Program-made: the position numbers and the translations under genes
In this document: one piece after another, positions 34,586 to 40,490 of the stretch
Layout: each line of letters opens with the position of its first letter
How positions within the stretch are numbered: position 1 is the stretch's first letter
Assembly (NCBI GenBank): GCA_003614675.1
Contig: ML002250.1
Location: 1-58,070, forward strand
Direction: 5' to 3'
DNA from: Dimargaris cristalligena
Taxonomy: Eukaryota
Length of the DNA: 58,070 nt
The notes under the pieces: model-generated
What the model was told of the DNA's origin: nothing
Databases searched by the model: none
The model's input: only the letters and a program-made list of their open reading frames with translations

Positions 34586-40490
<5,905 letters not shown>

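Follow-up and report, generated by a model that had tools for sequence, protein, structure and literature searches.

A probable two-nucleotide exon between the RRM and SURP exons of the U2SURP gene of Dimargaris cristalligena

Exons of one to a few nucleotides have been described in fungal genes, and two of these descriptions come closest to the locus presented here. The long-read annotation of Coprinopsis cinerea is reported to contain internal exons of 1 nt (13 cases), 2 nt (57 cases, in 50 genes) and 3 nt (27 cases), a class that is thus fairly common in at least one fungus (PMC12230235). In Fusarium, a 1-nt exon of CYP621A was reportedly inferred from a phase conflict and later confirmed by reads (PMC12940212). 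Exons of 2 nt in fungi are thus already documented, and the AG exon proposed here would add a case to a recognised class, which makes it a modest finding. The records listed by a literature search on 2-nt exons include no paper on U2SURP or on Dimargaritales, and no title or abstract returned for Dimargaris cristalligena together with intron deals with the subject.

The window analysed here, that is the whole stretch of 58,070 nucleotides (positions 1 to 58,070 of contig ML002250.1, assembly GCA_003614675.1), carries on its minus strand a gene for the orthologue of U2SURP, or SR140. A preliminary description of this DNA had proposed that the RRM and SURP exons of this gene are joined in frame via an exon of two nucleotides, AG. 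We consider that the AG at 38532-38531 is probably a real and constitutive exon joining the two, a judgement drawn from the nucleotide sequence and from orthologous proteins. The interpretation given in the preliminary description is partly supported, and its core, the need for this exon at the junction, is the best-supported reading of the evidence gathered. The features concerned are as follows, a slash marking a splice border here and throughout:

34586 to 40490, minus strand: U2SURP (SR140) orthologue, from the match to the public protein P0005, its spliced mapping and its Pfam domains
38850 to 39304, minus strand: RRM exon, 455 nt, ending with ...IPKIAT plus the first base of a codon, G, hence phase 1
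38533 to 38849, minus strand: proposed intron 4a, 317 nt, phase 1, with donor GTAGGT, branch-like TTCTAAT and acceptor AAATAG
38531 to 38532, minus strand: proposed 2-nt exon AG, giving GAG (Glu) with the preceding G, from its rank, its uniqueness and the E found in Dispira simplex
38374 to 38530, minus strand: proposed intron 4b, 157 nt, phase 0, with donor GTAAGC, branch TGCTAAC and acceptor CTCCTTTATAG
38200 to 38373, minus strand: SURP exon as proposed, 174 nt, from its translation, the Pfam Surp match and the alignment with D. simplex
38298 to 38373, minus strand: conserved coding stretch, 76 nt, treated as intron in P0005, whose acceptor is ACAGAG/CC at 38298/38297

With the RRM exon as query, the best protein match was a 546-aa protein of Dimargaris cristalligena itself, 'hypothetical protein H4R33_005673' (P0005, hereafter the public model), which is 100% identical over the part queried. 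It was followed by proteins of Dimargaris xerosporica and D. verticillata (82%), and further matches came from Tieghemiomyces parasiticus, Glomeromycotina and other fungi; many relatives bear the name U2 snRNP-associated SURP motif-containing protein. The public model displays the Pfam domains RRM_1 (47.8 bits), Surp (61.1 bits) and CID (38.0 bits), all above the Pfam cut-offs. Since these three domains are united in one protein, we identify the gene at 34586-40490 as the U2SURP/SR140 orthologue. Mapped onto the window, the public model falls into 10 exons on the minus strand, from 40490 to 34586, and the model proposed here would count 11.

In this mapping, the introns of the gene (34745-40400, minus strand) are long for a fungus, ranging from 167 to 1523 nt, with five above 380 nt. 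Several of them contain runs of G or C, which appear as PPPP or GGGG in the translated list of open reading frames, and a (TA)8 run (38816-38831, minus strand) lies 18 nt into the proposed intron 4a, shortly past its donor. The reading frames around U2SURP carry ordinary housekeeping domains (WD40, actin, SNF2/DUF3535, ORC5 lid, HMG box, RNase III-like and Eapp). One of these regions, 6799-13857 on the minus strand, comprises open frames of 1224 and 1079 aa with DUF3535, HEAT, SNF2 and Helicase_C matches; its domains suggest a single large gene for an ATPase of the SNF2 family, poor in introns, unlike the intron-rich U2SURP gene, and presumably resembles Mot1/BTAF1. On the plus strand, a 404-aa open frame at 45267-46478 matches DUF1636 at its end (82.7 bits). 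A dispersed repeat of about 100-150 nt occurs at four places (1122-1271, 15424-15522, 28628-28774 and 54242-54391), in both orientations and with 81-95% identity, and may be a small mobile element. Finally, 57430-57653 and 57707-57928 are adjoining direct copies of about 225 nt that are 77% identical.

The reason to look for an additional exon is a conflict of phase. The last bases of the RRM exon are ...ATT GCC ACA G, up to 38850, and GTAGGT comes next (38849-38844), which makes a phase-1 border. The SURP exon starts with CAC AAT CCC at 38373, behind the acceptor CTCCTTTATAG, in phase 0. The TAG directly 5′ of CAC is an in-frame stop, so that the SURP frame has no further extension on the 5′ side. 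We enumerated every GT or GC donor and every AG acceptor between two conserved anchors, the motif GLPFNAQ and a 10-residue peptide. This full enumeration of donors and acceptors yielded no direct GT-AG join that keeps the frame. Just two direct joins keep it, both with poor GC donors that lack the consensus, GCCACA and GCACTT. The clash between a phase-1 and a phase-0 border, on which the preliminary description was built, therefore stands, with all its coordinates and letters present.

The translation of the SURP exon matches the Pfam Surp profile (positions 1-37) with its residues 20-56, and 40 of 59 residues are identical in D. simplex, the alignment starting at residue 2. Because the 25 codons 5′ of the annotated acceptor show conservation at the protein level and because the Pfam Surp match starts within them, they are coding; consequently, the mRNA must reach 38373 in frame.

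The candidate exon is framed by recognisable splice signals. The minus strand displays TTAAATAG at 38540-38533, AG at 38532-38531 and GTAAGC at 38530-38525. In intron 4a, the branch-like TTCTAAT occupies 38571-38565; a distance of 33 nt separates its branch A from the acceptor, and its branch score is 10. In intron 4b, a branch consensus TGCTAAC, absent from the preliminary description, is found at 38424-38418, with its A 45 nt before the SURP acceptor and a score of 11. These two distances resemble those in introns 3 and 8 of the same gene (42 and 44 nt). Any longer exon that ends at the GTAAGC donor is closed by an in-frame TAA at 38539-37. The branch-like motif, acceptor, AG, donor and GAG codon claimed earlier, as well as this stop, were all found as described.

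To compare solutions, we scored donors and acceptors with matrices built from the gene's eight other introns, which makes them crude, and added a simple score for the CTRAY branch motif. Among 114 frame-keeping solutions with one internal exon, the AG exon ranks first with a score of 44.1. The second solution, at 37.0, employs this same AG exon, and the best one that does without the candidate acceptor reaches 32.5. The donor of intron 4a scores 8.1 bits and that of intron 4b 8.6 bits, the latter within the range of the gene's eight other introns (7.3-12.1). The acceptor of the microexon, AAATAG, scores 3.9 bits, below the 5.4-9.8 bits of the eight training acceptors. The acceptor matrix says little, however, since the undisputed SURP acceptor itself reaches only 2.4 bits.

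How often would such a signal arise by chance? The two strands of the 58-kb window contain exactly one site at which an acceptor of 3.9 bits or more is followed, after two nucleotides, by a donor of 8.6 bits or more, and this site is the candidate itself. The looser motif YAGNNGTRAGY is seen three times where 2.31 are expected per window, thus without overall enrichment; its expectation per 476-nt intron is about 0.01, and the other two matches are ordinary donors at exon ends. We also shuffled the intron interior with dinucleotide composition preserved, admitting all exon lengths that equal 2 mod 3 and do not exceed 150 nt. In 57 of 2000 shuffles, an internal exon that restores the frame scored as high as the candidate (p ~0.03). 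The splice signal of the AG exon by itself is real, not overwhelming.

Several other routes would restore the frame, and we regard them, taken together, as unlikely. They comprise a GT..AT intron ending 2 nt early, a GC donor (ATT/GCCACA), another small exon, or a [D1,2] stwintron in which the G is dropped. All keep the frame on paper, and the models of D. xerosporica and D. verticillata, which have five residues at the junction, indicate that longer inserts occur in the genus; yet every one of them depends on one or more poor or non-canonical sites. The consensus is missing from the GC donors. The preliminary description had reported that other pairs of sites near 38706-38765 give stops or a wrong phase. 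This holds only in part: frame-keeping pairs do exist there, giving exons of 5 nt (TTGTG), 2 nt (GG, 38749-38748) and 31 nt, each with at least one weak site. These small exons score at most 32.5, compared with 44.1 for the AG exon. The 31-nt exon was rejected for its weak upstream donor, GTCATG. A strong donor-like CAG/GTAATT at 38705 was also set aside, because its phase does not match that of the strong donor at 38849.

Four stwintron candidates would join ACA to CAC. Their rebuilt donors score from -2.1 to 1.5 bits, where the real donors of the gene score 7.3-12.1, their internal acceptors do not exceed 1.2 bits, and their product lacks the E discussed below. The GT..AT intron is a different matter, for it leads to the same E-containing product. 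As CAC is itself preceded by AG in the genome, an intron ending at 38376 would give an identical mRNA. Consequently, a cDNA reading ...ACAG-AG-CAC... would not suffice as proof of the microexon. We rate this intron low because it has no AG acceptor.

The proteins of other Dimargaritales bear on the size of the missing piece. The RRM-exon translation aligns with the predicted protein of Dispira simplex (P0033) through T298. The SURP-exon translation aligns with it from N301, its first residue standing opposite D300. One residue, E299, is left between the two exon alignments. This residue would be made up of one base from the RRM exon and two bases that are absent from both exons; as G plus AG gives GAG, i.e. 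Glu, the AG exon fits the gap. In D. parvispora, the position of E299 is occupied by Q.

The deposited models of other relatives diverge from one another at this very place. D. xerosporica has EAEMM (P0006) and D. verticillata GQSVW (P0007), five residues in each case between flanks that are otherwise near-identical, and the Tieghemiomyces model (P0008) is without the stretch. GQSVW starts with G, as expected from read-through of a G/GT donor. These divergent junctions may reflect predictors faced with the phase conflict described above, and the models of these relatives may conceal that conflict or a small exon.

The deposited protein of Dimargaris cristalligena offers another way out, a single intron of 552 nt (38849-38298) that ends at ACAGAG/CC and leaves the protein without 26 residues at the start of SURP. 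We judge it improbable that this model is correct. It is a deposited one and maps exactly onto the window, and it still scores as a Surp module, with 61 bits over profile positions 5-52. Its junction, however, passes from ...IPKIAT to AVERIL..., with an acceptor located within the SURP reading frame. The annotated intron ends with GAG, with neither pyrimidine tract nor branch motif close by, and the 60 nt before this end look like coding sequence. ACAGAG/CC would be the sole non-YAG acceptor of the gene, the other eight all being YAG. Moreover, what the model removes is conserved as protein: the 76 nt encode 25 residues, among them those that match the opening four positions of the Surp profile in Pfam, with counterparts in D. 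simplex and in all five other Dimargaritales models. Predictors that are blind to a microexon pick sites such as ACAGAG/CC. On these grounds, the public model is very probably wrong at the RRM-SURP junction. The expectation that standard gene predictors would miss the exon is borne out for this single public model, which does without AG. A protein search with the SURP exon, covering proteins of 136-2000 aa, returned the public model alone and no alternative model of the junction.

The same model provides indirect information on a second sequence of the locus. It differs from the window at two residues, AEDAPKF against AEYAPKF (40105-40248, minus strand) and IIDEAD against IIDEDD (37174-37365, minus strand), and its source contig, of 19,457 nt, is shorter than the window; it therefore comes from another assembly or allele. 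Since its T/A junction needs a phase-1 donor directly after ACAG, this second assembly has that donor too. An error common to both sequences is, from this comparison, unlikely.

An older form of the same architecture may be preserved outside Dimargaritales. A metagenome scan with the RRM exon recovered eight loci, with no close relative among them (best identity 67%). Only one, L002, is informative: the linker is uninterrupted in L001, L003 and L006 and without intron in L007 and L008, L005 has no GLPFNAQ motif, and L004 stops before the linker. The exons of L002 are 88-97% identical to Rhizophagus and Funneliformis proteins. Its linker contains a first intron of 85 nt in phase 1 (...GLPFNAQMVHTK+G/GTGAAT), then an exon of 35 nt, then a second intron of 65 nt in phase 0 (ACA/GTGAGT...TTTTAG/GTT). 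This model reproduces the annotated Rhizophagus peptide apart from one L/P difference. Phase 1 followed by phase 0 is also the order of the two introns proposed in Dimargaris cristalligena. The difference between the two exons, 35 - 2 = 33 nt, amounts to 11 codons, and the two linkers differ in length by the same 11 residues. For the linker introns, the positions are at most one residue apart, within a poorly alignable stretch. The next two Dimargaris cristalligena introns, in phase 0 before SPEH and in phase 0 after PFDDH, have the same column and phase in L002. The 1.5 kb of this Glomeromycotina-like locus (L002, 1-1565) contain at least eight short introns (65-91 nt); two interrupt the RRM region, which is free of introns in Dimargaris cristalligena. 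From this one distant locus, the pair of introns is probably old, and the exon between them probably shrank, in the variable RRM-SURP linker, from a few dozen bases to two.

These comparisons also bear on the possibility that the gene has suffered a recent loss of 2 bp at one of its splice borders, or that both assemblies carry a common error there. In that event, the gene would carry a frameshift or be in decay, with AG/GTAAGC as a coincidence. The E or Q of Dispira, encoded by xAG, would suit an ancestral phase-0 donor ...ACN GAG/GT from which AG was removed, and coincidence has some room, as the 57 of 2000 shuffles indicate. Against it, the two assemblies concur on the phase-1 donor, the remaining exons are all intact and conserved, the splice signals of the AG are complete, with a branch motif in each half of the intron, and L002 carries the same phase-1/phase-0 pair. 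We therefore hold such a loss to be improbable. The comparison with L002 suggests a way in which such exons can arise, namely that a small exon flanked by two old introns shrinks, and not that a frameshift is rescued. A zero-length recursive splice site was rejected, since the AG lies between an acceptor AG and a donor GT, and keeping zero bases would leave the frame broken. As to an introner or repeat origin, the 476-nt intron stretch has no second copy in the window.

If the AG exon is real, splicing at this place would involve two ordinary U2-type GT-AG introns, 4a and 4b, held apart by AG alone, both of which would be removed while AG is kept. The mRNA would read ...ACA G-AG-CAC... and the protein would be 26 residues longer than the public model, so that the deposited protein would miss 26 conserved residues where its SURP region begins. 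As both splice sites of a 2-nt exon cannot be occupied together, the two introns would most likely be removed sequentially. Either order would leave a working site: GAG/GTAAGC once 4a is out, or AAATAG/AGCAC once 4b is out. If AG were skipped, translation would stop at a TGA (38203-38201) placed right before the next intron, with five junctions up to the end, and such an mRNA would be a likely target of decay.

U2SURP acts with the U2 snRNP at the 3′ splice site. A reported activity of human SR140/U2SURP, shared with SPF45 and CHERP, is the repression of short exons, including microexons (PMC8594467). The preliminary description had suggested that skipping of AG could work as an autoregulatory switch, an idea to which the human activity lends some appeal. 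An extended scenario could be imagined in which U2SURP controls inclusion of its own 2-nt exon, derived by shrinkage of an ancestral exon of about 35 nt, and in which skipping exerts negative feedback via mRNA decay; the exon would then be a point of regulation besides a pitfall for annotation. We hold this scenario to be improbable as a whole, and its autoregulatory part is speculative.

The proposed exon shares features with several described systems and differs from each of them. Stwintrons and recursive splicing also imply two successive splicing reactions within what appears to be a single intervening sequence, but stwintrons and zero-length ratchet sites, as described, keep no nucleotide between the introns, whereas the U2SURP proposal keeps two. 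The 1-nt exon of APC11 in Arabidopsis is reported as a constitutive ultra-short exon overlooked by annotation, as would be the case here; it belongs to a plant and was tested with GFP fusion constructs (PMC4674806). The Glomeromycotina linker exon (L002; Rhizophagus P0010/P0012) resembles the AG exon in gene, linker, phase-1/phase-0 pair and shared neighbouring introns; it differs in its length of 35 nt, in the 11 additional residues of the protein and in intron positions that agree only within one residue.

The two fungal systems are the closest in kind. In Coprinopsis cinerea, nuclear genes are likewise reported to have internal exons of 1-3 nt whose omission leads to premature stops (PMC12230235); in this basidiomycete they are supported by full-length transcripts, whereas the U2SURP case, in a splicing-factor gene of a zoopagomycete (Dimargaritales), is deduced from sequence and orthologues. 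The reasoning is nearest to that applied to Fusarium CYP621A, with out-of-phase neighbours, a homologue that gives the number of missing bases, and an AG/N/GT arrangement with conserved splice signals. That exon has 1 nt, is reported to be conserved in 20-24 orthologues and was confirmed by SRA reads (PMC12940212), whereas the U2SURP exon is a proposal from sequence and orthologues. Ultra-short exons being known in Basidiomycota, Ascomycota and plants, the AG exon of U2SURP would extend them to an early-diverging fungal lineage.
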